From the NCBI GenBank assembly GCA_051294375.1, contig CM119266.1, positions 23,056,350 through 23,120,349 on the forward strand: a stretch of DNA of 64,000 nt, given 5' to 3'. The stretch's first letter is position 1, and each line of letters starts with the position of its first letter. Shown in pieces: positions 9,481-61,569 of this stretch. This DNA comes from Paraspadella gotoi (lineage: Eukaryota > Animalia > Chaetognatha). The position numbers and the translations under genes are program-made. Below the pieces are notes generated by a model. It ran no database searches and was not told the origin of the DNA. It saw nothing but the letters and a program-made list of their open reading frames with translations.

Positions 9481-9535
<55 letters not shown>

Positions 9536-9670: not shown

Positions 9671-9728
<58 letters not shown>

Positions 9729-9870
9729 AGAAGAGGAGAGAGAGAGAAGAGAGAGGAGGAAGGGAACAGAATGCAAGTCGTGTGAGGAATACAGATGAAG
9801 ACGAGAAGTAAGGCGCTTTTCGATGTATAAAGAGATGACGGCAGCGATAAACTCGTCCGCGTCGTTGATG

Positions 9871-9906
<36 letters not shown>

Positions 9907-11818: not shown

Positions 11819-11885
<67 letters not shown>

Positions 11886-12021
11886 TTCTTCCGCGCAGCT
11901 CCACGGGGGTGATATCTGATCAAATGCAAATGAATCTGCAGTCCTCTCGGTCGTTAATATAAGTCGAGGAGGAGAACGCTTTTGGAGGGGAAGAAAGTTC
12001 GCGGGGGTTCGGAAAAAAAGC

Positions 12022-12109
<88 letters not shown>

Positions 12110-12213
12110 GACAGAATCAAGTCGTTGGAGGAAATACAGATGAAGACGAGAAGTAAGACGCTTTTCGATGTATAAAGAGGACGGCAGCGATAAACTCGTC
12201 CGCGTCGTTGATG

Positions 12214-12246
<33 letters not shown>

Positions 12247-18904: not shown

Positions 18905-19037
18905 TTGCAGGGTCCTGCTTTGTTATTATCTTGTAAGAAGGATTGAGGACTTAAACCATAGCCGGTCCAAAGTCCGGGGCAAGATTGCTTTATAATTTAT
19001 CATTTATTATAATTTTATATTGTTTGTACCAATTTCA
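18905..19037 (+). mobile_element. Diverged family A copy
   Basis: TATCTTGTAAG...GCCGGTCCAAAGTCCGGGGCAAGAT...TTGTACCAATTTCA; P4 reads CCGG/CCGG instead of CCTG/CAGG. Confidence 0.65.
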
Positions 19038-20358: not shown

Positions 20359-20904
20359 CGGCCTGTCCGCGACTCGGAGCGACAATCGACGAACAATTGG
20401 CGGCCACTAAATTTTACGACTCGCCCATAGCTGTCACGTTTTACGGCGCACTCGTTAGCGTCGGTTATATGCTTTATGGGGGTGGCGTTTCGGGGTCTTG
20501 GATGGTGGAAACGATGGTGGTGCGGGTGGTGGTAGTGGTTGTGGTGGTTGTCGGTACTGGCGGTGGAGACGAAGACGAGAATCGGGTCAGGAAGATATTA
20601 AAAAGCTGTTGTATTTTATCGCTGGAGATTTTGGGACTAAAAATAGCAGAGATGGAACTTGGTGTCGATCTTTGAAACATCGTGGATCACGCGTGAAGCG
20701 AAGATGCCGAAGAGATGGGAGAGGTGAAAACTAAAACAAACAATTTGAAATCTTCAAAGCTTAATTTCTAATACTCATAGTTTGTCTATCATAATTTTAT
20801 AGGATTTCTTTAGTTTGTGACGCCGCACATTCCCCCTCAGGTTTTTCTATCTTCCTCCATTTCTTGCTTAAATTTCTAACCGTTTCAGATCAACAATCAC
20901 AATT

Positions 20905-21017
20905 ACTTGTAAGAGTGATGGAGGCCTTAAACCACCAAAGCCTGTCCAAAGTCAGGGGAAAGATAGCTTATTTATTAAATGAATGGATAATTTTTATATT
21001 GGTTGCACCAATTTCAT
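20905..21017 (+). mobile_element. 5'-truncated family A copy with intact twister core
   Basis: Core 20907-20958 is identical to the 29.4-kb copy; the P5 stem is degraded. Confidence 0.75.
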
Positions 21018-22613
21018 ATTTTCAATCCTATCAAACGCTTCTATCACATCTCTACAAGTCGATGCTCCCATCTGTTCTATATCCGTCTCTCTACACATCT
21101 CTTCTACAGTTTTCTCGCCTCCCGCTCTTCCTTCAGTTTCGTCCTCTTCCTCTTCCTCCTCTTCCCCGCCATTTTGCGCCGCCGACGTGTTCCGAGAAAC
21201 GGGAAATCCAGAATGAGGACGAGGAGGAGGAGGGGAGGGAGAGGAGGAGGAGATGAGGAGGAAAAAGCGCGGGGGGAAAAGGAAAACGTGAGGGAAAAAG
21301 TGGACCGATGGTGGATAAAGGAAGGAATTGGAGATGGGAGGAAATTAAGGAGAAGTACGTGAGAAAGGAATGAGAAAGGAAAATAATATAATCAACTGTA
21401 AAACAGACAATTTTTTTTTTAATGGGGTAAAAAAGGAATGAGAATGAAAACGTCGAAAAAATGAAGAAAATATGTATAAATAAATCTTGTAATAGGAATA
21501 AAGTCGTCGAAATTTATGAATATATGAATAGACATTGTAATAAAAAATAAATACTATTAGAAAATTCTTAGGGGAGAAATAAAGTCATGGGGAAAAACGA
21601 TGCATGGAGGTTGGAGAGTGAACGAAAAAATTCTTAGTTATCAAATAGTGAATATAAAAGGTTAACGGTTTCGTCTGTGTTTTACCTCTGAGAACATTGA
21701 TAAGCTATGTAACATTTATTTCAGTCTTTCACTCTTCTTATATTATCGAATAATTTGCCTTTAATATTTTAGATTCAAAAAAAAATATTTTGTAATATTC
21801 AGTACTAGTCAAAAATAGAAAGGTTAAAGCCGGAAAAAAAATTCATGTGGGACTTTAAAATGCCGTTATCGACGTTGCCACACTATTATAATCTCTCCTC
21901 ATTGGCTGACCGTTTGAATGAGGCTGCTTTTCTATTGGTCCGTGGTGTCTATGGAGAAGCGTGAAGGAGCCAATGGCGTCGGGTGGCACGATGATGAATG
22001 CCGGATTCTCCATAAACCTGTCAGAGGGCGTCAGGACTGCCCATATATCACGCGACAGCGATGCAGCGGCGAGGCGCGGCATCGCTGCGGTCGAAAGAGA
22101 AAAAGAAAGAAAAAGAGGAAGAAGAAAGGGAAAAAGGAAGGCTGAGGCAATGTTATTAGCGAAAAAATTTTACCACTGCAATTTAAGCTTTTATTGTATA
22201 TTTGTAGGGAAAGAATATTTTAAAAATAAAAACGCTTCGCGCAATTAATTTGTAACATTAATAGTGGCAGGGTTAATTTACTTCTTTTGCCCCTTGTTTT
22301 CTTTTTTGTTTCCGATTTGTAAGAAGCGACATCTTACATTGAAAAAAAAATTATGAGCAAAATTTAAACAAATGCACAGTTTATATAATGATTCGAGAAG
22401 ATTTTATTGATTATATTCTACTTTCTAGCAGTCGTTTCTAAAAATTAATGTAAATTTTATTCTAAACTTGAATCAAAATTCAAAATAAAAATATCAATAT
22501 AGTTTAAAATATTGTAATTGTCGCAATTATAAAATGCATCCGACAAAATGAAATGTAAGTCTTTTACAGACTAATACGCGAAGTTTAATCTATGGCGAAA
22601 GAAAGAAAGAAGT

Positions 22614-23429
22614 TCAACGCGAATGCCCATTGGGGCAATTGACATTTTTGGGCCAATCGCAGTTATTGGTTTTGGAGTTGAAGAGAAGACCCCGAGGGCA
22701 GTCGAAGAAGATCGGGGTGTCGCCGTCGCATTGATAGTATCGACGACAGTCCGTTGGGTCGGGTCTCACCTGAGTGATTGAAAAAGAAAAACGGGTGAGG
22801 GAATGCAAGGGTGGAATTAGTAAAAGAGTCCCTTACCCTCGTCCCAACAGAGTCTTCCTTACCTTTCCATCTCTGCACTCGACGGGATCTGGGATGAAAA
22901 GATCGGGCGGCGGGTCGGGCGTCCCGAACAATCCAGAGTTGATCGCCGTCAAGATCGGATATCTTCCTTGACCGCAGTAACCTGGACGGGAGTATTTTTA
23001 ATAAATTTAACTATTTTTTTGTTTTTCCTTAACTTTCTTTTCTTTTCTTTCTATTCTTTCTTTTCTTTCTTTTCTTTCCTTCTTTCTTTCCTTTCTTAGC
23101 TTTAAAACAAAGATTAAACAAATTAACCAAAAAAATTGGAAGCATTACAAAATATGAATCAATACAAATAGTGAAGAGTTTACTTTAAAAAAAAATCGCT
23201 AAAAAAAAAGAAAAAACTAAAAGTTACAAGTCGAACATAAATAATGCGACTCTCGCACCCCTAAAGTCGTCGAGGTCCATGCTCCAAATCATTCCGCCCG
23301 CGTATCCGTTATTCTTGATCCAGTCGGTCTTGTAGACGACAGATTTGGGGTCATCGAATCCCACCCACTTTGTGTCCATGTAGGCGTAGTTCGACTTGGC
23401 CTCTTCGTCGAACACCTGTTGGCGAGGAA

Positions 23430-23520
<91 letters not shown>

Positions 23521-25878
23521 AGAGAGAGAGAGAGAGAGAGAGATTGAAACAAAGGCATGTAAAAGAACGCTTCGACGAGCTGGTGCGGGGCATACCTTGG
23601 TCCAACCGTTCCTCAGATTGCGACACGTCTCGTAGTAAGCAAAGTATCCCGTAACGTCCACGTATTCGCCTACGAGATGAGGAGGCCGTAAAAGTGAACA
23701 AGAAAAGAACTCAAGGTAAGTTCTCCCCACCCGCAGGTCCGCTGCCGAATCCCGTAGTCGGGTCGTTGATCCCGTGCTGGTTCGGATCGATGAGGTAGAA
23801 CCCACGTCCGTAGGTCCCCATCCCGATGGCCAGACGTTCCTTGGGAAAACCGCGGGACACGAACCTGATTTTAAAAGAGAAAGGAGGTGAGAAAGGCGTC
23901 TTAGATATTAGAAATCTTAGATATATCTTATATATATCTTATATAATATATATACATAGATGTAATCGTTACCAATTGGCAGCGTGCTCCACATTCATTA
24001 TCCTTTTGTTCCCAGTGTCCGCAGCGTGGGGATGCAGAGCCACGTGGATTCCTGGTACAAGAAAATCTTCGATTTTATGTCACGGACTTTTCTTACCAAA
24101 TTTTAATAAAGATTGTTAATGATTATGTATTTTTATTATTGGTTTTCAAGCCTTTATGACTTTTTTATGGCTTTTTTATAAATCCCTTTGTACTTCAAAT
24201 TCAATTCCTGATCTTTCATTCCCTTCTTTTAAATCTTTAATAACTGTTTCCACCCAATCAAATCCCCAGCCTTACCGGTGGTCGGCTCCCACACCAGCAT
24301 GTCGTAAGTCATGAGCATCAAGTAGTCCAGCGTCTTATTCAGCCCCGGGACGTCGTAGGCGGGTTCGGCGATGTACTCGACGGCGGATGTGGCGGCTGTG
24401 AGGAGAAGGCGCTCCTTGTGGTCGGGGCAATCCTCTTTCATGAAGACGTCGCGGATTCGCTGATGATTAAGGATGTGTAAGAGTGTGTCAGTGAGAAAGA
24501 TCGAGAGACTTACCTACGAATGACCTCACCTGCAGACAAGGAATGAACCTTTTCTTGTCTTCTGCAACCGAGCCGCGTGGCAGATATCCCGGAAACTCCC
24601 AGTCCATGTCGAGACCTAAAAATAATTGGAAGTTTACAATCAAAGGTTACAAAAAAAGTTAACAATCAATTTTTAAAACATATATTTTATCTTTATTTTA
24701 TCATTTAAGATATGAGTATAAAATAGTAATAAATACGTTTTTTTTTTTAAATTAATTTGTCATTAATATTAAGTAGATAAAATTACTTATATGACTCACC
24801 ATCGAATCCGTGCTGTCGCAGAAAAGTGACCGTCGTTTTGGCAAAATGATCAGTGTTCTCGGGATATTTGCACAAGTTTGTGAAGTTGATATTTTCGTGT
24901 TCCCAACCGCCGAGAGAGATGAGCGTTTTCAGCTTCGGGTTCGTCTTCTTGTGATCCTGAAGAAAAAGAGAAAAGTTTATGAAGTTAAACGGTTATATAA
25001 TAGGTCAGATGGAACCATTTCGAACAGAGATCGGGTTTTTTATTCTTGGATTTTATTTTTGGAGAAGTCTACTTGACTACATCAGACTAATATATGACAT
25101 GACATATATAACATATGATGGGTGATATCTATTAGAAAACTAGGACAGATAGTAATCTAACCTTGTGTTGTATAGATGCTCCCTCTATTTCCAGAAGATA
25201 ACACTGACTTCCTCTTCCCAAATTGAATTATTAGATAAATATAACATTTTTAAGAAAGAAAGAAATATATATTTGATTAAATAATATAGATTAAAAACTA
25301 AATCCTTCATAAAATATAAAAATAGAAAATAGTGAAACAAGTAATTTACAAATTTTCATATATGTCTTCACCTGCAGCACTTCGTAGTATCCCTTGTAGT
25401 CATTGTGAGAGAGTTCGATAGACGGCTCGAAAGGCGCCAACTCAAAGTGTTCGTTCATATCCACGAACGCGTACATGATGTGCGTGCAGAGACGCGGGTC
25501 GATGTCCGCGGGTCCGAACTTACCGATCCCGTGACGGTGACGGGCCAGCGTCGCGAAGTAACACACCATCATCAGATCTGGCGTAGAGAAGATTATTGAG
25601 TTGATTGCAAGAGATAGCAAGTTTGAAGGTGTGAAAATATTCTTAAAACTGTAGAAGACGAAAACACAATGACAAAAAATGTTCAAGATTCCAAATGTAC
25701 TCACCTTTCTTTTCCGTCATCTGAGTAGTTTGAAAAAAAAAAATCAGAAGATTTGTTTTATTTCAATTCGAAATAGGTACAATGTAATTGTTGCCAATAG
25801 TTAAGTTCACGTTACCTTGCTAGGAGCTCCAGTGACGAGACCCAGCACCGTGGCCAACAAAACGATTTTTAGCAACAT
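22614..25878 (-). CDS. Secreted GH18 chitinase with C-terminal chitin-binding type-2 (CBM14) domain, ~476 aa, 12 coding exons
   Basis: Phase-consistent GT-AG exons: 25878-25816, 25720-25705, 25577-25372, 24956-24800, 24615-24530, 24459-24276, 24051-23973, 23864-23731, 23669-23596, 23415-23259, 22981-22863, 22769-22614. Signal peptide MLLKIVLLATVLGLVTG; motifs LCTHIMYAF, KTLISLGGW, intact catalytic FDGLDMDWEFP (DxxDxDxE), MTYD, YGRGF, WVGFDD, GGMIWSMDLDDF; Pro-rich linker; six-Cys CBM14. Confidence 0.95.
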
Positions 25879-27859: not shown

Positions 27860-29379
27860 CTGAGGGAGGAGGGGAAGAGGACGAGATAAACCGGGAAATA
27901 AAGCAAAAATAATCATATAAAGATCAGTTAATTAATAAATAGTTAATTTAAATATAAAAAGATAGTTTGTTTTTGTTGTTTTTTTTAGATTTTATTTCTG
28001 TCGTCGTTTCAGAGATTAAAAAAAACAAAAAAACGAACAAATCGTTTTTTAAAAAAAATCTCTTCGACTCAGTGAATTGTCGTTTTACTAAAGTTTATGT
28101 AGTTTTTTTTTTTAACTTTAGAAAGATTTCAGTTTTGTATTTTAAAACAAACGAAAAGTTGTCGAACGAGTGACGGGTCTTCGGGCTCGGAGAAAGTCTT
28201 CGACTAAATCAAAACTGGCAGGAAAGTCAATCGAGAGACTTACTTTTTCGAGGAATGTAGGGTCTGTCTCTTTTTTCCAGCGACGCAGAAAAAATAAACA
28301 AGTCTCCGGGATTTCCCTGGGATTTTCTTTCGCGAGTGGAATGGAAGGAGAAGTGAATTCGGGAGCGAAGAATCGAAAGTCTGTTGCCGAAGAATTCGAT
28401 CTCCGCTTCTGGGGTCAAAACTCTTTTTCGCCGGGTTTACACGACAGATAACGAGCGATCCCGGAATTTTTGGGGAGGCGGAGAGAACTCCGGGGGCGGG
28501 CGAGGGGGGGCACCACCGGACGGGAAATTTATAAGCAATTCGTTTCGAATTTAATTTGAAATTATAAATTTTTAAAAACGTCAGTAGTAATGATATGAAG
28601 CAAATTTTACTAAACACTAATTATATCTACAGTTACATTTTATATATAAATAATTCTTCCGTTTCGTGTTTCGATTTTTAGAACTTTAGTGCCGTCATTC
28701 GCCGCCGCGGTCCCACATGATCGATCCACTCCCGCATGCTTCTCTTAAAGCTTCGTTATTGTTTTAATTCCCGACTCACGCCCTGTTAAAAGTCGAAAAC
28801 ATAATTTACGTGATTCTGGTCGTCGTCGTCGTCGCAGCCCGGTCATGTCGATCTCGATTTAATGTGAAACCAAACGCATTAATGTTATTAATATGTGGCT
28901 TTTTATAACAGATATTTACTGAAGCCAAATTTATTAACTTCTCGGAAGTATCGGATACTGTATACAAGCTATTTTCTATTTCTGATTAATAAAAAAAAAA
29001 GAAGATTATAAAGCGAGGAAATATTATTAATATCATTTATTTGTTATTAATATTTTATAAAATGAGATTGGTTACCGAGAAATGTTATCACTGATTTGGC
29101 CTTTTGATGGCGAAGTTTTAAAATCAACAGTGGTAATCTTTGTATAACAACTTTGTATAACATAGTCAGGCGCAAGATAGCTTAGTAAGAGAACTTAGGA
29201 GTATGTTTGGATTCCACGACCTATTTACAATTTTTAATAATCGTAAGAAAACCTTTATCTTAAAGATCTATACAATGAAAAATACTGTTCTTCAGAAACT
29301 TGTTCTGTTTTTTACAACATAAGAATTAATTAATTAATTTTATTTAATTGTTTTTGTTTCTCTCTATTTTATTATATTT

Positions 29380-29580
29380 ATGAAATTGGTACAACCAATA
29401 TAAAAATTATCCATTCATTTTATAAATAGGCTATCTTGCCCCTGACTTTGGACAGGCTTTGGTGGTTTAAGGCCTCCATCACTCTTACAAGATAATGACA
29501 TAGCAGGTCCCTGCAAGCTTTCAATCAAGACTCTCAGTCTCGTTTATTCACTCCCAGAGTACCTGTCTTCCCTATCAATA
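29380..29580 (-). mobile_element. ~200-nt dispersed short retroposon (family A), most complete copy
   Basis: Related copies at ~730-912 (-), 10718-10889 (+), 13052-13224 (+), 18905-19037 (+), 20905-21017 (+), 29657-29704 (+) and 34736-34802 (+). All share the 3' end ...TATATTGGTTGTACCAATTTCAT; 5' ends vary. Confidence 0.8.
29432..29494 (-). ncRNA. Type-P5 twister-like ribozyme in family A
   Basis: TATCTTG-TAA-GAGT-GA-TGG-AGGCCT-TAA-ACC-AC-CAAAG-CCTG-T-CCA-AA-GT-CAGG-GG-CAAGATA: P5 7 bp, T1 CCA/TGG, T2 AC/GT, P4 CCTG/CAGG. Confidence 0.7.
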
Positions 29581-30713
29581 TATACCTATATTAGTATGTT
29601 TGTTTGTTGATGATTGAACTGAATCAACCTAGTTGTATTCGAATAAAATCGCATATATTAAATGAATGGAGGGTTACTTTTTATATTGGTTGTACCAATT
29701 TCATGTAGTAAACCACTGAATTAAATAGGAATTAAAGTAATTTAGAAAGGTACAACCACAAAAATTTGTTTCACTTTGGCGAGCGCGAACCAACCATAAT
29801 AAAACGAGATATAAAATAAAACGATTACCGCATTATTTATGAGCCTGTGAAGCAACGATATCAGCTGATTTGACCCTATTTTTTCAGTCCTTATATATAT
29901 ATTTTTATATATTATATATTTATTATTCGATCGAGTCTTCCCCTGATGCCGTAACATCACCACCCCCTCAAACCTCCCGCATTCGCGAAACTTGTAAATT
30001 TCCGAGTCTTCAAAAAAAAAAAAAAAAACAAGAAAAACAGAAAACAATCACTGATTTTGAAAACGTTTTCCAGCCAGAGTCGAGGAATGATTTTTTTCAG
30101 ATGTTTTAACATTTATAACTAGTATTACTGACAAAGTTTATCCATATGGAGCGTTTGATAAAAGCAAAATGAATAGTAAACACGGTGTCTGTTTTTGTCA
30201 GTATCATTTATAGGGTGATAAATTCAACTCATACGTAGTTAAACTGAACGCCCTCGAGTCGAAAACGCTTATAAACAAAAATATACACATTTGACGTAGA
30301 TATATAGACTTTTTTTCCATAACGCCTCACGAAAAAAACGCTCGAATCCGAGCGGTTTAAAAGGAAAGAAAAATCGATCAAGATGCTTAGGGTTCAATTA
30401 TACGAAAAAAAAGTCATGTGTCGCAAAATTAATCGTGTTAAGCTTCAAAACCTCTCACGAGTCCAAAAAACACACAGATTCTTTGAACTGACCTACTTTC
30501 GCAAACAAACCTTATATTTCAATTAATATCCGAGTTAAAACTTTCTTGCGCTCTCGATTTAGTTATTTAGCTAAACGCGGACAGATGAAGATTGAAAATT
30601 TTACCATTCGATAAGATTATTAATTATACGCAGGGGCGCCGAAATAACCTTTTTTTAAAAAAAATTTTAAAAGTCTAACGATTCGGCTATTTTCGTATAT
30701 ACGTAAATCGATC

Positions 30714-33668
30714 ATGTGTTTTACCGACGCCCGTTTTTGGGGCGTCATCGTCCTCTCGACGATCTTGGCGATCCCGACGTCTTCAACCGAGTCATCTCAC
30801 TCTCCCGGCGTCGTCAGCGTCATACTTCCGAATTCCGGCGCCGAAGTTTTGGGTCGCGAAATTCTCGTCAACGGCGGTGTGGACGTCGCCTGGCGATTCA
30901 GGGGCGTCCCTTACGCCAAGCCGCCTCTCGGAGAACTGAGATTTCAGCCGCCAGAACCACTGGATCCGCCAGAAGATGGGGTTAGTTGCTTTGAAATTAA
31001 AAAAAAAAAAAATTAAATATTGTGCGTAAACGAACGCCAACATTTTGTTCGATGTACATAATTTAAAAATTAAGCTATTGTATTATTTTCTCTCTTTTCG
31101 TTGCTAAGTGAATATTAGGAAATGTTTATTGAGTGCCAATACAACGATAATGAAAAAAATAATAATAAAAAATCGTTGTATTGGCACTCAATAAACATTT
31201 CCTAAAAATTAAGCTTAAATTTATTTAAACAGAAACCAATCGATGCATCCACTGACCAACCGCGCGCCTGTCATGGAATGGTGATGGATCGTCGCTTCGG
31301 CATGACGGACGAATTGGAATTGGGCGCCAATCGGCAGGCGGTCGCGGATTCAATGTCGGAAGATTGTCTCTATCTCAACGTGTGGACGACGCCGTTGAAC
31401 AAGGTTCATATTAATACAAATAATTGAATACATTTTTGAATGCAGATTAAGGTTGGCATATGAAAAGAAATGACTACGCTTCTTCAGACCGCGCCACTCC
31501 GCCCGGTCCTCGTTCAGATTCACGGCGGCGGATTCTTCGCCGGCGCCGCCGATTATTCGGCCTACGACGGCGCCGTTCTCACTACGCGCGCCGATGTCGT
31601 CGTCGTCGTCCCCAATTACAGGTTTGGAGTTTTCGGTTTCCTGACGCTGGGCACCGATGACATGCCTGGCAACGCCGGGCTGTGGGACGTTGTAGTGTCT
31701 CTCAAATGGATCCGGGATAATATCCAAGGTGAGGTTGAACACTTAGTTCGTTTCCTCGATAATTCGCTTCTTTAGATAACTCTCGCCCCCCTCTCGCCAG
31801 CTTTCGGCGGTGATCCGTCTCGAGTTACGCTCTTGGGGGAGAGTGCCGGCGGCACCGTCGTCGACGCACTTCTGGAATCCCCGAGGGCGCGCCCGCTTTT
31901 TGCCCGCGCCATAATTTCAAGCGGCGTCGCGAAGCACAACGTCTACGGAATTGCGGCGCAGGAGGAGATCGTGAGGAACTCTATCATGTTTTTGCGTTCT
32001 CTGCGATTTAAAACGAGACGAAATCACGAAGGGGCTCTTGAGAAAGATCTGGACGACGAAAGCCGAGTGGACGAGAAGGAAGAGGAGATCGAAGTTGACG
32101 AAGACATCGAAGATCTCGAAGAGGACGTCGCTGAGGATAAAGATGAAGACAAACAACCGGACGACTCAGCCGGAGACGATCTCGAAGAAAAATCGAAAGA
32201 CGATCCCGAAAACAAAGTTCCAATTTTCGACGAGGGGTCCTCTGACAAATCTAAGTTACGGGCCTTTATTCTCAGACAACTGTTCTTAGCCAAAAAGCTG
32301 AAAGCCACGGTCCTCGACAAAATACAGTGGATCCGTTTAACCCAATATCCCGGCTCCCTGTACCCCTTCCGCCCGATGGTCGACGAGCGCGTATTGATGG
32401 AGGATTCGTACCTCGCGCCCGGCGCCGACGGGAACGTCGACGTTGACGTCATCCTCGGGTGGAACGATCAAGAGTTCGCCAATTACGCCATCACTAGTTT
32501 ACTCGCCGATGTCGGGCTCAACGCTAAAGATAAGGACGCCGTATTGTGGAATGTTACGCGAGTGGCCGAATACTGGAAGAACCACGTCAACGAATCCAGG
32601 TACGAGGGCGATACTATTCGCTAATGATAAATTCTGCTGTGGGTTATTCCGATTAAAACTCAAATAGCGTAATTATCACGGAAATTATTTATTTTTCATC
32701 CAAATTCAGCAATTTAAACCTCAAAGAATTCAATGGGACCGCGAGGTTCGAGACTGTTTACAGGTTGTCCGAGAACAGGTTGGTCTTTTTGACTTATGAT
32801 TACTGATTACATTGATTAGTGCCCACTTGAGGTCGCTGATCGATGACGGCTATGACTTTCCTTTCTTCCCGCGCTTCAGCTCAATCGTCAGCCAGTTTTA
32901 CACCGCCATCAAGCGAGAGACCGACTCTTGGTTCGTCTGCCCGATGATCGCCCGCGCCCGCCGGCTCTCGGAGGTTCCGGGCGTCAACGTCTACGCTTAC
33001 GAGATGCGTCACAACCTGGAGGCGCTCCCGGACTGGATGGGCGCGCATCACGGCATGCAACTGCCACTCGTATTTGGGCGTATGCTTGATCCCGATAGGA
33101 TGTACAGGTGAGCGATATAAGTTAACTCGAAACGCAAAACTTGCATAAAAGAAATTGTAGCTAGGGGCCGAGGGGAATTAGTAAAAAATGGTTTGGTCAG
33201 TGAAAAGATTTATTTTTAATTTGACAAAACTTTTTTATAACGACTCTCGTCAGAACCGCCGGGACTTCGACCTCTCCTCCCGGGGCGATCCCATTCTCAG
33301 ACACGGACGTCTCCGTCAGCGTCGACTTCATTAAGGAATTAGCTTCTTTCGTGCGTGACGGACGCCCAACTCTCACTTGGCCCCAATTCACTGCGGGTGA
33401 TGAACGTGTTCGCATCTTCGGTCAGCGACGTTCCGAGGAAGAATTTGACCTAAACGAAAAAGACGAGTCGAAAGGCGACGAAAAGTGGGAGCGGCTTTCT
33501 CCGTGGCAGAGACAACGTTGCGACTTTGTGGGTGACAGTTACCTGGAGGAATCCACGCAGGGTTCGGCGATCAAGTCGTCCCTGTCGTGGCCGCTTCTGG
33601 TCTTTTCCACTATTGCGATTATGCTCACAATGACGATGATGATTTCCAAAATTATCTCTAGGCCTTGA
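30714..33668 (+). CDS. Type-B carboxylesterase / cholinesterase-like protein, ~729 aa, signal peptide and probable GPI-anchor signal, 7 exons
   Basis: Phase-consistent exons 30714-30980, 31233-31403, 31488-31728, 31801-32599, 32710-32778, 32880-33107, 33254-33668. Motifs [60 protein letters not shown] (catalytic Ser), GWNDQE (acid), WMGAHHG (His); C-terminal GSA-spacer-hydrophobic tail. Confidence 0.95.
31115..31205. repeat. Perfect 34-bp inverted repeat in intron 1 of the esterase
   Basis: TTAGGAAATGTTTATTGAGTGCCAATACAACGAT, 23-nt A-rich loop, exact reverse complement. Confidence 0.9.
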
Positions 33669-34360: not shown

Positions 34361-35799
34361 AAGGCATAGCCTCAGTTCTTAATTTGTTTTTCGAATAAAC
34401 GATAGGGGCTTTACCGTCGTTTGTTGAAAGAGATAAAGGGTAAATTGTACATACCGTATATACTTGCTCCCTATCTAACTATTGATTACTGAATATTAAA
34501 AAATGAAAAATGTTAGTAACCTTTCCCGTTAAAATGTTTTCACATAATGTCTGACGCAATTATTTTCAGAAAATTTCTCCTTAAAAAACTTTATTGCTTT
34601 TGCTTCCTATTTTCTCTTTGTACCTAAAATTATCGTAATCATTTAACACCCTGATGCTTGCGAACAGAGAAATGCGGTAAGTGGCAAGTCCATGAAAATC
34701 GTCAAAAAATTGGCAATAGTAGTGGGCAGTGACATAAGTCGGGGGCAAGATAGCTTATTTATTAAATGAATAGTCAATTCTTATATAGGTTGTACCAGTT
34801 TCCTAAAATTAACCCTAATTCTTAATTTTGACATTAACATGAAAAAAAAAATGACAATCCTTAACTTGCAGAGTTCCCTCGCGGAAACCGACTGAAATCG
34901 CCCCAAAACAAAAGGTTCTCAAAAAGATAGGGAAACTTATAAAATTTAATTGCATGGACGGCAACAGAATGATCTCCGTGATTGGAAGATTATTTCATTT
35001 CTTTTTGGTTTTATCTCTTTACTGCGTCTTCTTGGTGGTTAATACTAAGTAAGTGCAAGAATTTGTGAACAAAATGCTACTGAGCATTAACTTGTCGGAT
35101 TCCGAGTATATAGATGACTGTCGATATGTTTGGTTGATCAGTTTCATTATTAAATGAAAAAAAAATTATAATTTTTTTATCCAGATAAAAGGTGTGCTAC
35201 AACAACTTTTTTATATTACAGGGGTAGGACCCTACATCGCGACAAAATTTTAAAAATCATTACTCTTAAAATCTGAATAAATATTCGTATAGTCTTCTCT
35301 CTTAGCTTTTAGACGATTTATTAATTGTTTTGATATTATGCTTTTTAGTTTTAACAATTTTTATCTATAATTTTATTTATAAATATTAAAAAAATAATTA
35401 TTAATGCTTCGAGCCATTTAAAAAAATTTGGTCCATTGAAAGTTTTCTTAGAAATGTATAATGTTTCATTTGGGAAGGTTCCCAAATAAAACTTCTGACC
35501 CACACTAATGACATAGATTTGCCCTAGCTAAATTGTATATTCACGGATTTTCTGGTCGGTTATTTTAGATTAAATTTTTCCCTTGAAAAGCCAAAGGTTT
35601 TTTTATATATTATTATACCGGCTGACGTAGAATGTTGGCAATCAAGTTTAATGTAAATCGGACCATGAATATAAAAAATAACAAATAACTTTAAAAAATC
35701 CGATGGAATAATCTTGCCATAAAAATTTTTTTACCGAATCTGACTTCCACTCTTTTACTTTTACCCTAATCATTTATTTTTAAAATAATATAATTAAAT

Positions 35800-43584: not shown

Positions 43585-44775
43585 GTTCACAGAGAGGGAC
43601 ACAGAGAGAGGACAGACAGAGAGAAACAAGGTGACAGCTGCTGGAAGGCCCGCTGTACAGTCATTGCAGAGACTGAACTCGTTTTCTCTAAAAAAATTTT
43701 TTTTTTTTTTTTTTTTTATTAATACCAAAAAGACAGGTATTTTGACAAACATCAAAAACAGTATCAGTTGTAAAAAACTAAAAGCAGTAAACAAGTAAAC
43801 AACTATTAAAATTCACAGAAAAAAAGACACTAACGTTAATGACTCATAATAAAATGTTATGAACTAATTCATAAGAAACTATAATATACACGTTCAAGAA
43901 CTTCAAATTAAATTTTAAAATCAAAAAGAAAAAAAAAAAAAAAGAAAAATATATACTATGTAATTTAAGAAATAAAGAAAGGCAAATATGTTACAATTGT
44001 TTACATTGAATTTTTCCAATTTTTTCCAATCGTCAGCTTGTAAAAGATTTTATTTTATTTGTATTAATTAAAATAGTTCTCATTAAAGATAATTGAGTTC
44101 CATTTTTATTATATTTTTAAAAAAAATTTTTGAATTTCATCTTCAATATTATATACTGCAATATGTAAATTAGATTAAAGCATTTCTATATACTAATTGG
44201 ATGTTATAATGAGTACTTTAATCTCATTTGCATATTGCAGTAAATCATAATGAAGTGGAAATTCAAACAAAAAATACCTTAAATCCACAATGTAATATGA
44301 AAATATCACAGCTATTTCAAGATGAAAAGCCATATCTAAATTTTTAACTTACTATGATCCACACTTTTGTAAAAACTTTATCATAATTCATAATAATTTT
44401 ATTTTAAAAAAAACGGTAAGTTACAGCCAAACCTATAAAAGCTGAGTAGTTTTTATATAAAAACAGCGCTGACGCCGACGACGACGACGACAACTACGTC
44501 ACAAAGAATTTTTTTTTTATTAATACCAAAAACAGTATTGACATAATCATAAACAGTAATAGTGTAAAGACTGGAAAACTAAACTATGTATGAAATTCAA
44601 TAAAAAACAAAGAAAGAAGCAAACCTAAAACATTATAGGACCTGAACCGGCTTCGCCGGTCATGGCTCGATAAAAAATATATATATATAATTTAAAGAAA
44701 TAAAAGAAAGGCAAAAAAATGTCATGAAGAGACCGTAATTATTGTTATGTGTTAGCGACAGAACCGTTCAATATG

Positions 44776-44850
44776 AGCAGTCCCTGAGCTTCGGATCAGG
44801 CTGTAACACCATGTTAAGGCGGGTTAAGCTCCCCGTCCCTCTTAACTGCT
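44776..44850 (-). ncRNA. Type-P5 (circularly permuted) twister ribozyme in the 3' LTR
   Basis: Minus strand AGCAGT-TAA-GAGG-GA-CGG-GGAGCT-TAA-CCC-GC-[P3 TAACA/TGTTA]-CCTGA-T-CCG-AA-GC-TCAGG-G-ACTGCT: P5, P2, P3, P4, T1 (CCG/CGG) and T2 (GC/GC) all form, and the conserved UAA, GA and U-NNN-AA-GC residues are present. Confidence 0.75.
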
Positions 44851-45188
44851 AGGGCGCCACCGGCTAGAACCCCGGACCTTTGGGTTGGGAGGCAAATGAC
44901 TTGCCTCCAGCACCAATGGCCGCTGATGAACGGTTGGTGGATTTTAGTCACCACATACATCCCCCCCTCCTGTAGGGAGAAGTCTGTTGCGTCACTTCAG
45001 TGAATTGTTGTTATGGAAAGTGCGTCACCAAGTTGAGGCATGTCGCCTGATTTATTGTTGGTGGAAAAAGCATCGCCAGGTTAAGGCATGTCGCTGAAAG
45101 TGTTGTTGCTGTGTGTTCGGAAGTCGGGCTCACCAATGAAGAGAAAGTAATTATTGTTATGTGTTAGCCTGACAGAACGTTCAATATG

Positions 45189-45268
45189 AGCAGTCCCTGA
45201 GCTCTCGCGATCAGGCACTGTAACACCATGTTACAGGCGGGCTAAGCGCCCTGTCCCTCTTAACTGCT
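45189..45268 (-). ncRNA. Second twister copy in the 5' LTR (substitutions/indels, possibly sequencing errors)
   Basis: AGCAGT-TAA-GAGG-GA-CAG-GGCGCT-TAG-CCC-GC-CTGTAACA(TGG)TGTTACAG-TG-CCTGA-TCGCGAGAGC-TCAGG-G-ACTGCT; perfect 8-bp P3 but altered T1 and L4. Confidence 0.6.
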
Positions 45269-45859
45269 AGGCAGCCACCGGGCTAGTACCCCGGACCTTT
45301 GGGTTGGGAGGCGAATGACTTGCCTCCAGCACCAATTGCCGATGATGAATGGTTGGTGGATTTTATTCCACCATAGTTACAATTGTTTACAATTGGAAAT
45401 TGTTACAATTTTTTTCAATCATAGCTTGTAAAAGATTTTATTTTTGTTTGTTATAAAATTAAGATATAGCTTCACATTAAAAAGGTCTTTTAATTTCAAA
45501 TGTTTTTTATTGATTCAAAGATTTTTTTATGAATTTTATCTTCAATATATTTTACTGCAATATGTAAATTAGATTAAAGCATTTCTATATACTAATTTGG
45601 ATATTATAAGGAGTACTATAATCTCATTTGCATATTGCAGTAAATTATAATGAACTGAAAATTGAAATAAAAACTATGTGAATCCAAATGTAATATAAAA
45701 ATTTTAAAGCGATTTTAATATGAGAAGCCATATCTAAATTTTTAACTTACTATGATCTTACACTTTTATAAAACTTCATTGTAATTCATAATAATTTTTA
45801 TTTAAAAAAAAATAAGGCCCAGCCAAAACTATAAAAGTGTAGTAGTTTTTATATAAACA

Positions 45860-47103
45860 AATTTGAGCAAACAATGTCGGATCTGCCTATGAAAATTAAT
45901 TAATTAATTAATCGATTAATTAATTAATTGATTAATTAATTTTAATATTTAATAATTAATTATAAATTTATATACAGCTTATCATCATCGATGTCCTTAA
46001 AATAAAGTAAATGTGACTTATATTTTTTCCATTTAAACTCATTTCCACTGGCACAATTCCGTCAAAACTTTATATCTAGCTTCTTCACAAACTTTCCTTC
46101 CCGCTCACAAAATTTCATCTCAATCTATTATGGGTTAAAATAAGTAAATAGAGTCAAGTAAATGTGACTCATATTTTTTTCATTTAAACTCATTTCCACT
46201 CGTACCGAAACTTTATATCAAGCTTCGTCACACATTTTCCTACCCACACACAAAATTTTAACACAATCTATCTATGGTTAAAATAAGTAAAAAGATTTTA
46301 ATAAATGCAACTTATGTTTTTTCCATTTAAACTCATATCCACTCACACGATTCCGTCGAAACTTTATATACAGCTTCATCACACATGTTCCTACCCATAC
46401 ACAAAATTTCGTTTCGAACCAACCAGCCAATCACGAGTTATTGGGGCTTTTTGCTAAGTTGGGACGGATGGACAGATTGATTGACTGATTAATGATTAAT
46501 TAGTGATTAATTAATTGATTAATTAACTGATTAATTATTTGCTTTATTTATACATCCTGCATTTACATTTAATATAAAAGGGAAAAAAATCATAATCAAT
46601 TAGTGAAATACATTTTTTGTTTTTTTCCATTTAAACTCATTTCCACTCAAACAATTCCATTAAAACTTGGTTTCCTGTTCAATCACACACTTTCCTACTC
46701 ACATACTAAATTCCAGGTCAATCGCCCCATCCACTCATGAGCAATTGGTGTTCAAATAGTGAATTATATTTTTTTGTTTTTTCTATTTAAACTCATTTCC
46801 ACTCGGACGATTCCATCGAATCTTTATATCCAGCTCAATCACACACTTCCCTACCCACACACAAAATTTCATTCAAATCCATTCAACCAATCACGAGTAA
46901 TTGGTGTTTTTTGCTAAGGTGGGACGGACGGACGGACGGACAGACGGACGAACGGACATCATTTTTTTTGCATAATTTATCATAATTCGATGTTCTGACA
47001 TGATATAAGTTAGTGCCCGACAATATTGAGGGGGCGGACCGACGGACCGACAAAGTGAATTATAGAGTCGGGATCTGCTGATAAGCAGATCCGGCTAAAA
47101 AAA
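45860..47103 (-). mobile_element. Helentron-associated / pearl-like non-autonomous element
   Basis: Subterminal inverted repeat CGGATCTGC/GCAGATCCG, T-rich end, (GTCC)n microsatellite, ~130-150-bp internal core repeats (TTCCATTTAAACTCATTTCCACT...), terminal small hairpin. Confidence 0.75.
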
Positions 47104-47774
47104 GCGTGACGCCGACGACAACGATGACGACGACGACTACGTCACAAAGAAGCGTCGCCTTCGCATTATTTTTGATTTCTAAGATGTTATTTATTATTTT
47201 TTTTTTCTTATGAACAAATTGAACCTATTAAAATCTCGGATATAATAAATTATATTATAATATATTATAGTGCCTAATAATGAATATTTTTTTAAAAAAT
47301 GCTCTATCGACGAAAAGCGAAGAGCGTATGAAATTAAATTATTAATTTACATTAACAATTTCAAAGAAATGATTTTTTTAAAAATTTTAACCGAATGTGA
47401 GGTCCTTCCACTTTATGTAGTGCGTGTTAGCTCAAACGTGTTACCACTTACCAGAATAATAATAAAAACCTTTACAATTTCTTAAAACAAATTTAAGGAC
47501 ACGGCCAGAAGGAATACCTTTCTTCAATATTTTTACACAAGTTTCATTCAGCTACGAAAAAAATAATTACAACGTCCAAAAATTACGGCAAAACAACGTC
47601 ACGGATTGGACGGAAAATCAATTGATGGTATTCGCTAATCTTTGTATGATTTGAAATTTAGAATAAGCTATGTTCATTTATTTTTCGAAGTCAATACATA
47701 TACAATAATTCTTACTTTTAGTAGAAGTCAAAATTAGTTTTAAACAAATAAAAAAAAGCAAACTCATTTCTCTT

Positions 47775-48555
47775 TTTTTTTAGCCGGATCTGCTCACAGC
47801 AGATTCCAGCTCTATAATTCACTTTGTCGGTCCGTCGGTCCACCCCCCCAATCTTGTCGGGCATTCACTTATATCATGTTAGAACATAGAATTATGATAA
47901 ATTATGCAAAAAAAATGTATGTTTGTCTGTCTTTCCGTCTGTCTTTTCGTCTGTCTGTCTGTCCATCCATCCCACCTTAGCAAAAAACACCAATTACTCG
48001 TGATTTGATGGATGGATTGGAATGAAATTTTATGTATGGGTAGGAAAGTGTGTGATTGAGCTGGAAATCAAGTTTTGATGGAATCGTCCGAGTGGAAATG
48101 AGTTAAAATGGAAAAAAAAATATTTCACTATTTGAATTCCAATTACTCATGAGTGAATGGGGCGATTGACTTCAAATTTTGTATGTGGGTAGGAAAGTGT
48201 GTGATTGAGCAGGAATTAAAGTTTCAATGGAATCGTCCAAGTGGAAATGAGTTAAAATGGAAAAAACAAACAATCTATTTTACTATTTGATTATGCTTTT
48301 TTTAATTTTTATATTAAATGTAAATTCAAGCTGCAATAATTAATTATTAATAAATAAGTAATTAATTACTTATTATTTGTAATTAATTAATTTTGTGGTC
48401 GAGATTGTTGTTTTGTGATTGAGAGTCGAGACAAAGTGGAAAACGATTTTGACATGAATAAAAAAAATTAATATTAATTAATTAATTAATTAATTATCTG
48501 ATCAGCTGCTTACCGCTAATGATCGTAGGCAGACCCGGCATTGTTTGCTCAAACT
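47775..48555 (+). mobile_element. Helentron-associated / pearl-like element, second copy (fewer core repeats)
   Basis: TTTTTAGCCGGATCTGCT...GTAGGCAGACCCGGCATTGTTTGCTCAAA; same modules as 45860-47103. Confidence 0.75.
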
Positions 48556-49129
48556 TTTTCAAAAACAGATTGAATTTCCCTATCATTTTCCATCCGTGAT
48601 TCCTTACGGAGTTTATTTTCAATGCTGCGGAATGCTCCGATTACTCATCAGCTGCTTCGTCGGTAAGAGCAGAAACAAATCTTGAAATTACCCTACCATT
48701 TAGTACTATTAGTATGCCTTTCACAAACCCCTTCTAGCAGTTATGATTTATCATATGTCTGGGCATTTAAATTTGAACTTGTATTGAGACTGAGTAGTGA
48801 CAATCAGTTTGTGTTTCCTATCCTGTTTCAAACACTTGCGCACTTCTTGTGTTATCCGCCATGCAATATCCCATATCCAAAATAGCCTATTCGATGCTTA
48901 AGGGCTTTTAAGTCAGATTTATATCTTATTTAAGTAAGTTTTATGAGAAATTTGAATCTGCTGTCAGAATTTTTTCAATATACTAGTAGTACTACATATA
49001 GTAGTTTATACGTTAAGGCAGAAGAAGGTAAAAACTAAGAGTTCTGTAATGTAAATAACGTTAGAGATTCCCTGTAGGATAACGAAATTTTTACCAAATT
49101 TAAGATTTTAAGTTTAGAGCAGAAAAATT

Positions 49130-49320
49130 TGATTTTTACAACGAATTGCATTTATTAAAGATGCAGACATGTTTGGAACACTTGTTTTGTTCATCATCAG
49201 TAAATTTTCACATTTTGGAATACAAAATTTTGGCAAGTCAAAAATTGAGAGAGAGAGAAAGAGAGAGTGAATCAGTGAGATAAAGCTTCCAACAAAGGAT
49301 CGAGAGAAAGTGAACAGTCT
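49130..49320 (-). mobile_element. Penelope-type pseudo-LTR with degenerate hammerhead
   Basis: Minus strand CTGATGA-T-GAAC...GTTC-CAAA-CATGTC (49200-49166) preceded by the (CT)n / TTGTTGGAA context seen in the other copies. Confidence 0.5.
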
Positions 49321-49703
49321 GTCTCTAAGTCATTCACCATCGAAAAAGAAAGGAAAACTAACAAGATTTTAAGTATAGTTAATAAGGCTGGCCAAAATTG
49401 AACGCTTTTAGTTCTCTCAAAAAAATTCCTTTTTTCCTTCTATTACTAAATCGATTTTCAATGCAACTTTTCGAATTAGTTCATTGGGTTGTTGCACTGA
49501 AGCTTTTAAATATTTATTAATATATAACAAATAAATTTTTTTTTACAAAATTTCTAATTTTTTAATTTTTTATCAGTTAAAATAAGTAAAAACTAAAAAC
49601 AATATGGAATGATGATGATTATAAGAATTTTTAAGGGTTTTCCCTTATTTAACCCACTTTTCATCGAAATATTGAAAAAAGCATTATACTTTATGTAGAC
49701 GAA

Positions 49704-50792
49704 TTTTTAGTCGGATCTGCTTATCAGCAGATCCCGACCTATATACTCACTTTGTCGGTCCGTTCGGTCCGCCCCCTCAATATTGTCGGGCACACACTTA
49801 TATCATGTCAACATCGAATTATGATAAATTATGCAAAAAAATGATGTCCGTCCGTTCCGTCCGTCCGTCCGTCCGTCTCCGTCCGTCCGTCCGTCCGTCC
49901 GTCCGTCCGTCCGTCCGTCCGTCCGTCTCGTCCGTCGTCGTCCGTCCGTCATCCGTCCGTCCACCTTAGCAAAAAACACAATTACTCGTAATTGGATGGA
50001 TGGATTTAAATGAAATTTGTGTGAGGATAGGTAAATGTGTGATTGAGCTGGATATGAAGTTTCGATGGAATCGTCCGAGTGGAAATGAGTTTAAATGGAA
50101 AAAACAAAAAAAAATATATTCACTATTTGAACACCAATGTGCTCATGAGTGGATGGGCTGATTGACCTGGAATTTTGTATGTGGGTAGGAAAGTGTGTGA
50201 TTGAACAGGAAATCAAGTTTCGATGGAATAGTTTGAGTGGAAATGAATTTAAATGGAAAAAAAAACAAAAAACCTGTTTTACTAATTGATTATGCTTATT
50301 TTTCCTTTTATATTAAATGTATATGCAGGATGTATTTAATAAATCAAATAATTAATCAGTTAATTAATCAATTAGTAAATAAATTAATCAATAATTAATT
50401 AATAATTAGTCAATCAATCGTCATCCGTCCCATCTAAGCAAAAAGCTCAAATAACTCGTGATTGGCTGGTGATTGGAATTAAATTTGTGTGTGAGTAGGA
50501 AAGTGTGTGATAAAGCTGGATATAAAGTTTCGATGGAATCGTGTGAGTGGAAATTAGTTTAAATGGAAAAACATAAGTCGAATTTACTAAAATCTTTTAC
50601 TTATTTACCAATAAATATCTAATTAATCATAATTGGATGATAGATTGAGTTGAAATTTGTGTGTGGGTAGGAAAAATGTGTGACAAAGCTTGATATAAAG
50701 TTTCAGTGGAAACGTACCAGTGGAAATGAGTTTATAATGAAAAAAATATAGTCCATTTACTTGAATCTTTTTATTTATTTAACCCATGATAG
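49704..50792 (+). mobile_element. Helentron-associated / pearl-like element, third copy (cut by gap); a 3'-end fragment also at ~56255-56432
   Basis: TTTTTAGTCGGATCTGCTTATCAGCAGATCC, long (GTCC)n, core repeats. Confidence 0.75.
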
Positions 50793-58800: not shown

Positions 58801-59128
58801 AGGCTTTTCTTAATTTTGATTGCTGATTTGAATTCCTCGTCAAAAGTTGATAAAAGAAAATATAAATTATTTTTAAAAATTCTTTCATTAAGTGGGTAAA
58901 AAATTACAAAAACTATATTTAATATATAAAAAGTTAATTTTCAGCTTAAAATATAGCTTTTTCTAATTTTTGACCCACTTAATGAAGAGTTTTTTAAAAA
59001 AGAGTTATATTTCTTTTTATCAACTTTTTATGACAAATCCAAATTGCAAAAAAATCTTAGAAAAAACTGTTTTGAAATTTTAACATTTATTGGATTAGTA
59101 CTAGTATAAATATGGCCTACTGCGTAAA

Positions 59129-61130
59129 TTGTATTTATTGGCTTCTTTTCGATCTCTGCATGGGGCAGAGTCAGTACTCTTCTGGTATCGGAAAGCAGAC
59201 GATACCATCCTGGCCGTGAAAAGGGATCTGGTTGATACCCTTCTGACCCATTTAAACAACATCGAAACGAGTATCAAGTGGACATGTGAAAAGGAGGAGA
59301 ATGGCAAAATTCCAATGCTCGATGTGCTTATTAGGCGCAAAGAGGGCGGCTCATTGGAATTCTCTGTGTATCGCAAACAAACTCATACTGACCAATACAT
59401 TCCCTTTGATTCGCATGCTCCCTTGTCCCACAAACTCGCCACGGTCAGGTCCCTTACCAGAAGAGCCCTACTACTGATTCCTCGACCCCGAGCTCCAGGC
59501 CGCCGAGCTTGAGCATGTCAAAAGAGCCTTGGGCGCTCAATGGTACCTCTTGTGGGCTTTCGAGAGGCTAGTTCCGGTCTGAACCAGCGTGAGGACAGTG
59601 GCCACCAGGGGCTGTCCAAGTACTGCTGCGCAAGTTCACTCCGCCCAGGGAGAGAACGAGGTCTTTGCTGACTGAAGGACCAACGCGCCTCACAGCGCAA
59701 TGGAATATAGCAGAAGCGCCTCAAGAACTGTGGGTACCTGCCCTCCCTCACACAGGGATCACTGAGCTTTGGTGCAGGTGCTAGCAAAGCAGGGGATCTC
59801 CACTTTCTAGTAGGCCCGTGCTCCTTACGGTGAGCAATTGGTGAAACCGAAAGATAAAATCCCCAGACCGCATATTCAGTAGTCTCTAATTGTAGGTATC
59901 GTGCTGGAGTGCTTATACAACCTTGCCATTAGAGTCTATATCTGTGCTCGAACGGAATCTCTGTAAATGGAAATTCGGTTTAAAACTAATAAAGCCGTAT
60001 CGTGACACAGAAGGGTCACTTTTTATCGGCTATTGCGAGCATTTGGCATCTTCTGGCCATCTGTTAGAGAGTTCCGACTGCTGTGCTGTCCATGACCAAA
60101 TTGGTTCTTCAGGAGTGAGAGAGGCGATTTACATCAAAGCCCTCGAAGCCCTCTTTGAATCGTGTGGAGGACGATTCGACCTCCCTCCAAGCTATGATTC
60201 GCTTCATCAAACTGATGGTGGAACCCACGCCACCTCAGCCGACGTGACTCCCCTGTCCCACTACAACGGGGTCAGGGGGGACTCTCAGCAGGCAATGGTA
60301 CCTGATGCTCACCCAAGCCTGCAGAAACTTGGACGACTCTCTCGATACCGAGCGCGCCCAACGACGGCCTGCAGGAGGAGGGGAGGAATCTGTATCTCCT
60401 GTACAAAACAGCCACAGGCAATCGCCCGCCTCCCGTCAGACGTGAGAGCGGAGGGCATTCGCGTTATCAGGTCAGAGACATCGCAGTGGCACTGGGCATT
60501 TTTTCAGGTTGGGTCATTTACAGATCCCAGCTAACTACTCCCCACACAATTACTCTCGTACAACCATGACAGCCTATGAACCGAAATTCAATTCAGTAAT
60601 ATCCCTCATGTTGCCCGGTGGAGGGGAGGGACCCAGCTCCTTTGAGCTCTTTCTTACTTATTTTTTCCTTACCATCTATTATTCTTAACTATCCCTCATT
60701 AAACTATCCTTTTCCATTTCATTTTCAATATTTCAATATTCACATTTTCAAAAATGCCAAACAGGCTTAATTTAATTTATTTAAATCTTGTATGTATAGT
60801 TTATTAATACTATTATCTTGTTGTTACATGCCTATGTTATACTATATTTTCTTCTTCTCTTATCTTGTCTCTCTCTCCCTTCTCTTCCCGTGTTTCACCA
60901 ATTTCAATTCACTCTCCTTTTCTCCATTCCTTATCTTTCACCTGTCCTCACATCTGACCACTTATCTTTACTAAATTCTTTTGGTTGGAACTCTCCCTCA
61001 TCTCTCTCTCTCTCTTCTCTCTCTCTTCTCAATGTTTGTGAAATAATTATTTGGTGATTCAGATGCTGATGAAGGCTTGAGTGTGAGCCGAAACATTGTC
61101 CAAAGTTATAAAACTTTTTGTTGTCCACGA
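59129..61130 (+). mobile_element. 5'-truncated, frameshifted Penelope-like retroelement (RT C-terminus, GIY-YIG remnant, 3' pseudo-LTR)
   Basis: WYRKADDT...HLNN...IKWTCEKEENGKIPMLDVLI...VYRKQTHTDQYIPFDSHAPLSHK...RSLTRRA; frameshifted ELEHVKRAL; later EHLASSGH...REAIYIKALE...GGRFDLP (GIY-YIG C-terminal half); hammerhead at 61066. Confidence 0.9.
61062..61103 (+). ncRNA. Minimal hammerhead in the 3' pseudo-LTR of the Penelope-like element
   Basis: CTGATGA-A-GGCTT(GAGTGT)GAGCC-GAAA-CATTGTC; helix I is weak; lies downstream of the RT/GIY-YIG remnant. Confidence 0.7.
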
Positions 61131-61569
61131 AAATTTCGTTTTATTAAGTTAAATTTTAAATCTTTACTATTATTATAAGTTTACAAAAGTGTGGCGGATC
61201 ATAGTAAAGTTAAAAATTTAGAAATGGTTCTCATCTTGAATAGCTTTGAATTTTTTTATTAATTTGGATTTAAGTTATTTTTTGTTGAATTTCCACTTCA
61301 TTATTATTTTACTGCAATATCAAAATTGGATTATAGGACTCAATAAATATCCAAATTAGTAATAGAAATGCTTTCAATCTTAATTTACATATTGCAGTAC
61401 TATATATAGAAGATGAATTCAAAATTTTTTTAAAAATTTTTAATAAAATGGGGGAACTCAAAGGATTTTTTTTATGAGAAGCTATATCTTAATTTAATAC
61501 AATAAAAAAAAAATCTTTTACAGCTGCGATTAGGAAAATTGGAAAAATTTCCAATTTGTAAACCATCTG

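Follow-up and report, generated by a model that had tools for sequence, protein, structure and literature searches.

A short non-coding animal retroelement with a tRNA-derived head and a predicted P5-permuted twister fold in its LTRs

The closest described systems are the Helenus/TRIMp3 elements (Kojima 2024, PMC10886601), presented in the text of that paper as TRIMs of 311–1263 bp with tRNA-derived LTRs, the animal families having a 4-bp target-site duplication (TSD); the tRNA-derived part is interpreted there as a promoter and not as a tRNA. Several origins are argued there, a Gypsy-type helper is suggested for the animal families, and Pol III transcription of the published Helenus is unproven. 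Plant LTR retrozymes form a second point of reference: cutting by their ribozymes removes the R repeat, and a circle has been proposed as template (Cervera et al. 2016, PMC4918200). LTR retrozymes have been pictured mainly as plant elements that carry a hammerhead and lack a clear promoter, and TRIMs with a tRNA head as elements that have no ribozyme.

The window, a stretch of 64,000 nucleotides, contains at 44725–45375 a 651-bp non-coding element that is almost certainly a TRIM, with the order LTR, primer-binding site (PBS), internal region, polypurine tract (PPT), LTR and with both ends fixed; it and all its parts lie on the minus strand. The 239-bp 5′ LTR (45137–45375) runs from TATG to TTCA and is 90% identical, across 239 columns, to the 233-bp 3′ LTR (44725–44957). 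The 179-bp internal region (44958–45136) includes 2.3 copies of a 48-bp unit at 45001–45108, and the longest ATG-initiated reading frame of the whole element is 48 residues. A PPT was recognised from the sequence at 44960–44971, and the PBS at 45123–45135, likely for tRNA-Trp, agrees at 12 of 13 positions with the Trp PBS given in Fig. S2 of the Kojima supplement (PMC10886601). Comparison of the PBS with fetched tRNAs, a set that contained no true Trp, yielded no good match. The target-site duplications flanking the element, TAAC on the left (45376–45379) and TGAC on the right (44721–44724), agree in three of four letters, and sequencing reads across the empty site join 44720 directly to 45376, omitting 655 bases, that is 651 plus the 4 bp of the TSD.

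Contigs from four runs were aligned on the element to read its ends, variants and read depth. They stop at the same two positions, with flanks that are unlike one another and AT-rich; in the largest runs each end is defined by 111–151 contigs. An ATAT bias adjoins both ends. The numbers of aligned contigs, 7,963 in run X1 and 12,429 in run X2, are not copy numbers, and they show a high-copy family; a search of metagenome contigs for the element found no copy. The insertion target was itself an AT-rich host repeat, further copies of which lie at 43990–44056 and 61501–61566 of the window. The anatomy, TSD and fixed ends bear out the initial annotation, which had called the element an LTR parasite. 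A reading of the 651 bp as a Penelope pseudo-LTR was also considered, and was set aside on account of the PBS, the PPT, the fixed ends and the 4-bp TSD.

Having two LTRs with a tRNA-derived, box-bearing sequence in each, a PBS, a PPT, a 4-bp TSD, short length and no coding capacity, the element is by definition a Helenus/TRIMp3. Like the elements in the published account (PMC10886601) it is a short, non-coding LTR-PBS-PPT-LTR unit with an A/B-box-bearing, tRNA-derived sequence in each LTR that is no functional tRNA, and with a 4-bp TSD; it shares its likely Trp PBS with Helenus-2_SyJa, and its 651 bp fall within the Helenus size range. Its tRNA-derived head lies near the LTR 5′ end, with a twister fold coming next; in most of the Helenus LTRs examined the head is instead found near the 3′ end, ahead of a T-rich tract. 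Other differences are that its LTRs start with TA, which only a minority of Helenus do, and that its A box reads TGGTG where the Helenus comparison gives TRGCY. None of six short motifs of the element was found in the Kojima supplement, a text in which line breaks can hide matches. The initial annotation had compared the element with the plant TRIM Cassandra. The likeness holds insofar as both would carry a Pol III promoter within the LTRs (putative here; PMC10886601 for Cassandra), but Cassandra is 5S-derived, of plants and described without a ribozyme, whereas the present element is tRNA-derived, of an animal and carries a twister fold, and the closest known kind is Helenus/TRIMp3.

The tRNA-like motifs first noted on the minus strand of both LTRs are present in both. 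The head occupies 44853–44923 in the 3′ LTR, one base more than the boundary of 44922 initially given, and 45271–45342 in the 5′ LTR, as placed by a tRNA profile and pairwise tRNA comparisons, with relaxed ARAGORN in addition for the 5′ copy; these comparisons make it very likely that the head is tRNA-derived DNA. The profile was glocal and built from 17 non-Gly tRNAs from the flanks, not chosen by the head pattern. Over both strands of the window its two best-scoring sites are the heads, at 26.1 and 20.2 bits; the site after them scores 11.6. In 20 shuffled windows the best score reaches 26.1 in none and 20.2 in one. The heads also come first and second with nhmmer, but weakly (E 0.11 and 0.94), and a combined A- and B-box pattern matches the window once, at the 3′ LTR head, against 32 matches in 300 shuffled windows.

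Among 60 tRNA-like sequences, the best match of both heads is Gly(CCC), with z of 7.2 and 7.6 and 46 and 51 identities. The resemblance to tRNA-Gly(CCC) proposed at the outset therefore recurs, in a ranking biased toward Gly by the retrieval of the Gly set with a head-derived pattern; for this reason Gly is only the likely source isotype, and a SINE2 head is an equally possible source. Of the tRNAs retrieved independently of that pattern, Cys, Val, Lys and Arg give z of 3.6–5.3 against the heads, several others lying near 0. An anticodon-loop remnant, CTCCCAA (CCC = Gly), is found at 44885–44891, its stem unpaired. A repeated SINE-like tRNA head also occurs in metagenome contigs (L001, L008, L022, L089, L103, L119, L121 and L122), where it has a CGCCTCCCA stretch in common with the LTR head and is mislabelled by ARAGORN as Ala or Trp; viral contigs searched with a tRNA-type pattern gave no match.

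The A-box-like motif lies at 44904–44915 (45323–45334 in the 5′ LTR), with a canonical position 14 in 4–16% of read depth, and the B-box-like motif, GGTTCTAGCC, at 44862–44871 (45280–45290), with T instead of a purine at position 57. Each copy in the window has its own defects: the B box of the 5′ copy reads GTAC, the T stem of the 3′ copy is short of one C, and the acceptor-like stem, described initially as 7 bp, pairs in each copy at only five of seven positions. The consensus string first quoted is accordingly a composite, its motifs real but the whole carried by neither copy. Contigs of other copies mostly depart from the window copies toward that composite, at 45342, 45337, 45287, 45273, 44854 and 44855, so that the 7-bp stem and the B box can be taken as family features. 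Within the B box GGTTC is kept, with C56 altered in 0.6–5% of depth among the 40 of 55 difference positions listed. Across copies the two boxes are no better conserved than the rest of this young LTR, and since the rest is about equally conserved, their conservation is no proof of selection.

By structure the head is not a tRNA, as it forms no cloverleaf. The Rfam tRNA model has no match at the heads at E ≤ 10, ARAGORN at its normal threshold calls no tRNA there, and in a minus-strand search with a calibrated covariance model of non-Gly tRNAs neither head appears at E ≤ 10; as all three miss the heads, we describe them as tRNA-derived DNA and not as tRNA. At a 75% threshold ARAGORN labels the 5′ head Gly(ccc), amid 86 calls in the window; calls at this setting, among them a Val-like cloverleaf that overlaps the twister, are at chance level and were set aside. 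On folding, the D and anticodon stems are unpaired, and the T arm reported initially survives as a T-like stem whose loop lies one nucleotide off the tRNA register. Both MFE folds include the alternative hairpin proposed in place of the D and anticodon arms (44888–44908), but its 7–8-bp form is private to the 3′ copy: at 44894, 89–99.8% of read depth sides with the 5′ copy, in which this hairpin has 6 bp. MFE z-scores are weak throughout (LTRs −2.05 and −1.71, heads −1.67 and −0.48, twister stretches −1.34 and 0.09).

About 2 nt past the head, which had indeed been placed directly upstream of a twister, begins what we are highly confident is a P5-permuted twister fold. In the 3′ LTR it spans 44776–44850, with a predicted cut at 44826/44825 and the general-base G at 44837; in the 5′ LTR it spans 45189–45268, with a predicted cut at 45244/45243 and with breaks in the fold at positions 45252 and 45242 and within loop L4. 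Our P5-type descriptor was built for this analysis from the twister consensus and agrees with the element table in the published text of PMC8501958 and with the Rfam consensus. It matches the 3′ LTR once, against none of 3000 shuffles of that LTR, and does not match the broken 5′ copy; a loose version makes about one chance match per shuffled window, so a single match proves little. Applied to viral loci, the descriptor recovered 10 of 121, and Rfam assigned the nine distinct ones as eight Twister-P5 and one twister-P1; none of the 36 viral loci with the T1 variant pattern of the LTR passed it. One viral contig, L255, holds two tandem P1-type twisters at 39–138; it had been taken for a short-linker P5 twister and, given the Rfam reading, was dropped as support.

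Like the type-P5 twister of Rfam (RF02684), the LTR fold has the same order of elements, the U^AA site, GA, both pseudoknots and the L4 pattern UNNN-AA-GC; it departs from that model in having a palindromic hexamer for P1, a P2 of three pairs plus a bulged A where four pairs are expected, an A-U pair closing L4, a P3, and a sub-Rfam score. Indeed, Rfam gives no twister match in this region, including RF02684, either at the gathering threshold or at E ≤ 10. The 3′ LTR copy contains the catalytic G and A, both pseudoknots T1 and T2, and all four positions (G13, G30, A46 and G48) at which no substitution is tolerated (Kobori 2016, PMC5113685). Pseudoknot pairs of the twister tolerate swaps (PMC5113685) and P1 is described as dispensable (PMC5408937); the G-C pair that closes L4 is called ‘essentially invariant’ in the text of the latter paper. 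The Perere-3 T-variant twisters (PMC8501958) likewise represent a twister without P1 in a retroelement. Readings as a P1-type twister or on the plus strand gave no descriptor match, those as hammerhead, HDV, pistol or twister-sister were weighed by eye against the motifs of those classes and dropped, and Rfam finds no hammerhead in the LTRs. Across the family, core positions of the twister decay at CpG sites, at up to about 13% of depth among the 40 of 55 difference positions listed. With the 5′ twister and the 3′ hexamer both broken, the copy in the window is probably inactive, while intact copies, judged by the predicted fold, would likely self-cleave at the predicted U^A.

A second family in the window bears on this fold. 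A sister repeat of about 200 bp, starting with TATT or ATT and in most copies ending with TTTCA, carries a homologous P5-type twister at 726–922 (−), 10713–10890 (+), 13048–13255 (+), 18902–19037 (+), 20902–21018 (+), 29376–29585 (−), 29653–29704 (+) and 34736–34807 (+), in which the bulged A recurs and the palindromic hexamer is perfect, several copies being 5′-truncated. These copies have no tRNA-like head, and no PBS or PPT was seen adjoining them; they would be either the solo LTRs of a related family or the tail of a Penelope-type element. As the sister repeat has the twister without the head, the head is not required for the twister module. A scan with the geometry fixed from the LTR alone picks up the sister family, against one match in 300 shuffled windows, while no sister twister was found in the viral contigs searched. 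Sequence outside the fold barely aligns between the two twister families.

We examined covariation in six copies, the two LTRs and four of the eight sister stretches, the other four being truncated or deleted there. In this set 90% of cells are paired, against 24–49% in slid controls, and two-sided changes occur in 10 of 19 pairs (four in P5, one in P2, one each in T1 and T2 and three in P4), all of them reflecting one contrast between two families and the same sequences from which the structure was drawn. Among 500 shuffles, 16 reach ten such pairs and none reaches the covariation score.

In place of helix P1 the fold has a self-complementary hexamer, at 45245–45250 in the 5′ LTR and at 44827–44832 in the 3′ LTR, where it is broken at 44830; at that position 94–99.8% of read depth has the 5′ LTR form. 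Self-duplex energies of the hexamers in the two families are −8.3 and −9.1 kcal/mol, ranking 47 and 20 of 4096, and the centre of the hexamer shows a two-sided change between the two families. Because the hexamer is self-complementary, the ribozymes of the two LTRs could pair, and we put it at just short of an even chance that they would act as a domain-swapped dimer only once both LTRs are transcribed, the alternative being a P1-less monomer.

Taken together these features suggest a model, modestly favoured as a whole, of a Pol III-headed, twister-cut, circularising TRIM moved by a Gypsy-type helper. Use of Pol III through an internal promoter in the head is reasonably probable from the motifs: initiation would occur near 45342, at the 5′ head, and transcription would read through into the 3′ LTR, as most copies have no run of four or more T. 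Such runs in the sense strand were to be checked according to the initial annotation, and the only one in the window copy (45065–45069) is not shared by at least 98% of read depth at 45068/45069; as evidence for read-through this absence is weak, having a chance we estimate at about 30% in 418 nt. A cut in each LTR would then release a unit of about 418 nt without the R repeat, which a host ligase would close into a circle carrying one permuted LTR, including the 3′ head. Priming by tRNA-Trp would start rolling reverse transcription and rebuild two LTRs, with a Gypsy-type helper performing reverse transcription and integration, as proposed for plant retrozymes (PMC4918200) and suggested for animal Helenus (PMC10886601). 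Pairing of the palindromes might, speculatively, limit cutting to full transcripts and keep their ends together.

The earlier proposal that the ribozyme trims off a promoter leader fits this model in part, in that the predicted cut would remove the head of the 5′ LTR but would leave that of the 3′ LTR in the 418-nt piece. With this second head between the cut sites the promoter would be inherited, in the manner also seen in the SINE-like repeats of Schistosoma (PMC6765202), where a Pol III promoter upstream of a hammerhead comes from the downstream copy. Both those repeats and Perere-3 are non-LTR and have no PBS, PPT or 4-bp TSD, whereas the present element has all three. Lying inside the unit RNA, the head would have to act as a DNA promoter without tRNA processing, a role with which the displacement of its T loop and the absence of paired D and anticodon stems would agree. 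The element further resembles plant LTR retrozymes (PMC4918200) in being non-coding, with a predicted ribozyme in each LTR, a PBS, a PPT, a 4-bp TSD and, as we infer, a Gypsy-type helper. Where those, as described, have type III hammerheads, a tRNA-Met PBS and no tRNA-derived promoter (PMC7761336, 10.64898/2026.07.22.740005), this element comes from an animal and has a tRNA-like head and, in place of the type III hammerhead, a twister fold, so that by ribozyme class it falls outside the retrozymes as so far described.

Three other explanations deserve weighing against this model. The element could be an ordinary Helenus/TRIMp3 that is transcribed from a Pol III promoter within its LTR and uses an R repeat for conventional strand transfer, its twister an inactive passenger or a structure only. 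The deviations of the fold from the consensus, its lack of an Rfam match, the CpG decay of its core positions and the fact that most of the published Helenus LTRs examined (PMC10886601) show no ribozyme by eye all speak for such a passenger, but the catalytic letters, both pseudoknots and ten two-sided changes have been kept between two families that barely align, and we regard it as unlikely. A little less likely again is a twister retrozyme that depends on Pol II or on read-through for its transcription, in which the head would be a relic of a tRNA or SINE insertion with no present promoter role. That the sister family has a twister and no head, that T57 and A-box position 14 are non-canonical and that no Pol III promoter figures in descriptions of plant retrozymes (in the text of PMC7761336 and PMC9695139) would all be expected of a relic; its position shortly before the cut, the place at which a promoter would be needed, the tRNA-like spacing of its boxes and the canonical A box in part of the read depth would not.

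The head might instead act as RNA, its acceptor and T stems being recognised, as in mascRNA, by RNase P/Z or for CCA addition, and the transcript being processed in this way. Persistence of the acceptor-like and T-like stems in the family, with the D and anticodon stems lost, agrees with this idea. The T loop is out of register, however, the tRNA covariance model gives the head no score, and processing of this kind at the 3′ LTR would sever the unit RNA; the variants observed in the stems, being C-to-T transitions, are uninformative. We consider this last explanation very improbable, and return to the Pol III-headed, twister-cut TRIM as the preferred reading.

The head alone is a known sort of feature, as in Helenus/TRIMp3, and what is new is its combination with a twister in an animal LTR-PBS-PPT element; open-access PMC and bioRxiv literature yielded no twister-bearing or tRNA-headed LTR retrozyme. 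‘Twister’ does not occur in the main text of Kojima (PMC10886601), where ribozymes are named only in a reference title. By eye, two LTRs in DataS1 of the same paper, Helenus-2_SyJa-LTR and Helenus-2_SyUm-LTR of the wasp Synergus, have all the parts of a type III hammerhead following the tRNA-like head: a GUC site, CUGAUGA, GAAAC, a stem I of 7 bp, and loops I and II that are complementary to each other. The elements concerned have a Trp PBS, and the text of the paper does not remark on the hammerhead. Tentatively, the element would then be an animal LTR retrozyme with a tRNA-derived Pol III promoter and a twister that works only as a pair and, alongside the wasp Helenus-2 hammerheads, could belong to a recurring, overlooked class of Pol III-driven LTR retrozymes in which animals use one ribozyme or another. 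If the model is true, a Pol III-driven LTR element has exchanged terminator and R repeat for ribozyme cuts and a circle, LTR retrozymes extend to animals and the twister gains a role in LTR retrotransposition; the fold would also be a natural twister variant missed by Rfam, with no P1 hairpin, a bulged P2 and possibly dimeric.

Elsewhere in the window, broken frames at 59105–60534 (+) resemble, by motif, the C-terminus of a Penelope-type reverse transcriptase; they have no match in Pfam, and a relaxed ARAGORN call of Gly(tcc) falls within the same interval at 60129–60201 (−). Exons of a GH18 chitinase (23224–25716, −) and of a carboxylesterase (30648–33668, +) are very divergent from named animal proteins; one chitinase exon is 75–79% identical to four proteins, one of which does not itself exceed 43% identity with any named animal protein. 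Units of 143–156 bp make up a nested array of inverted and tandem repeats, MITE- or Helitron-like, at 46005–50748, and a near-identical duplication pairs 8908–10609 with 11282–12944 at a spacing of about 2.35 kb.
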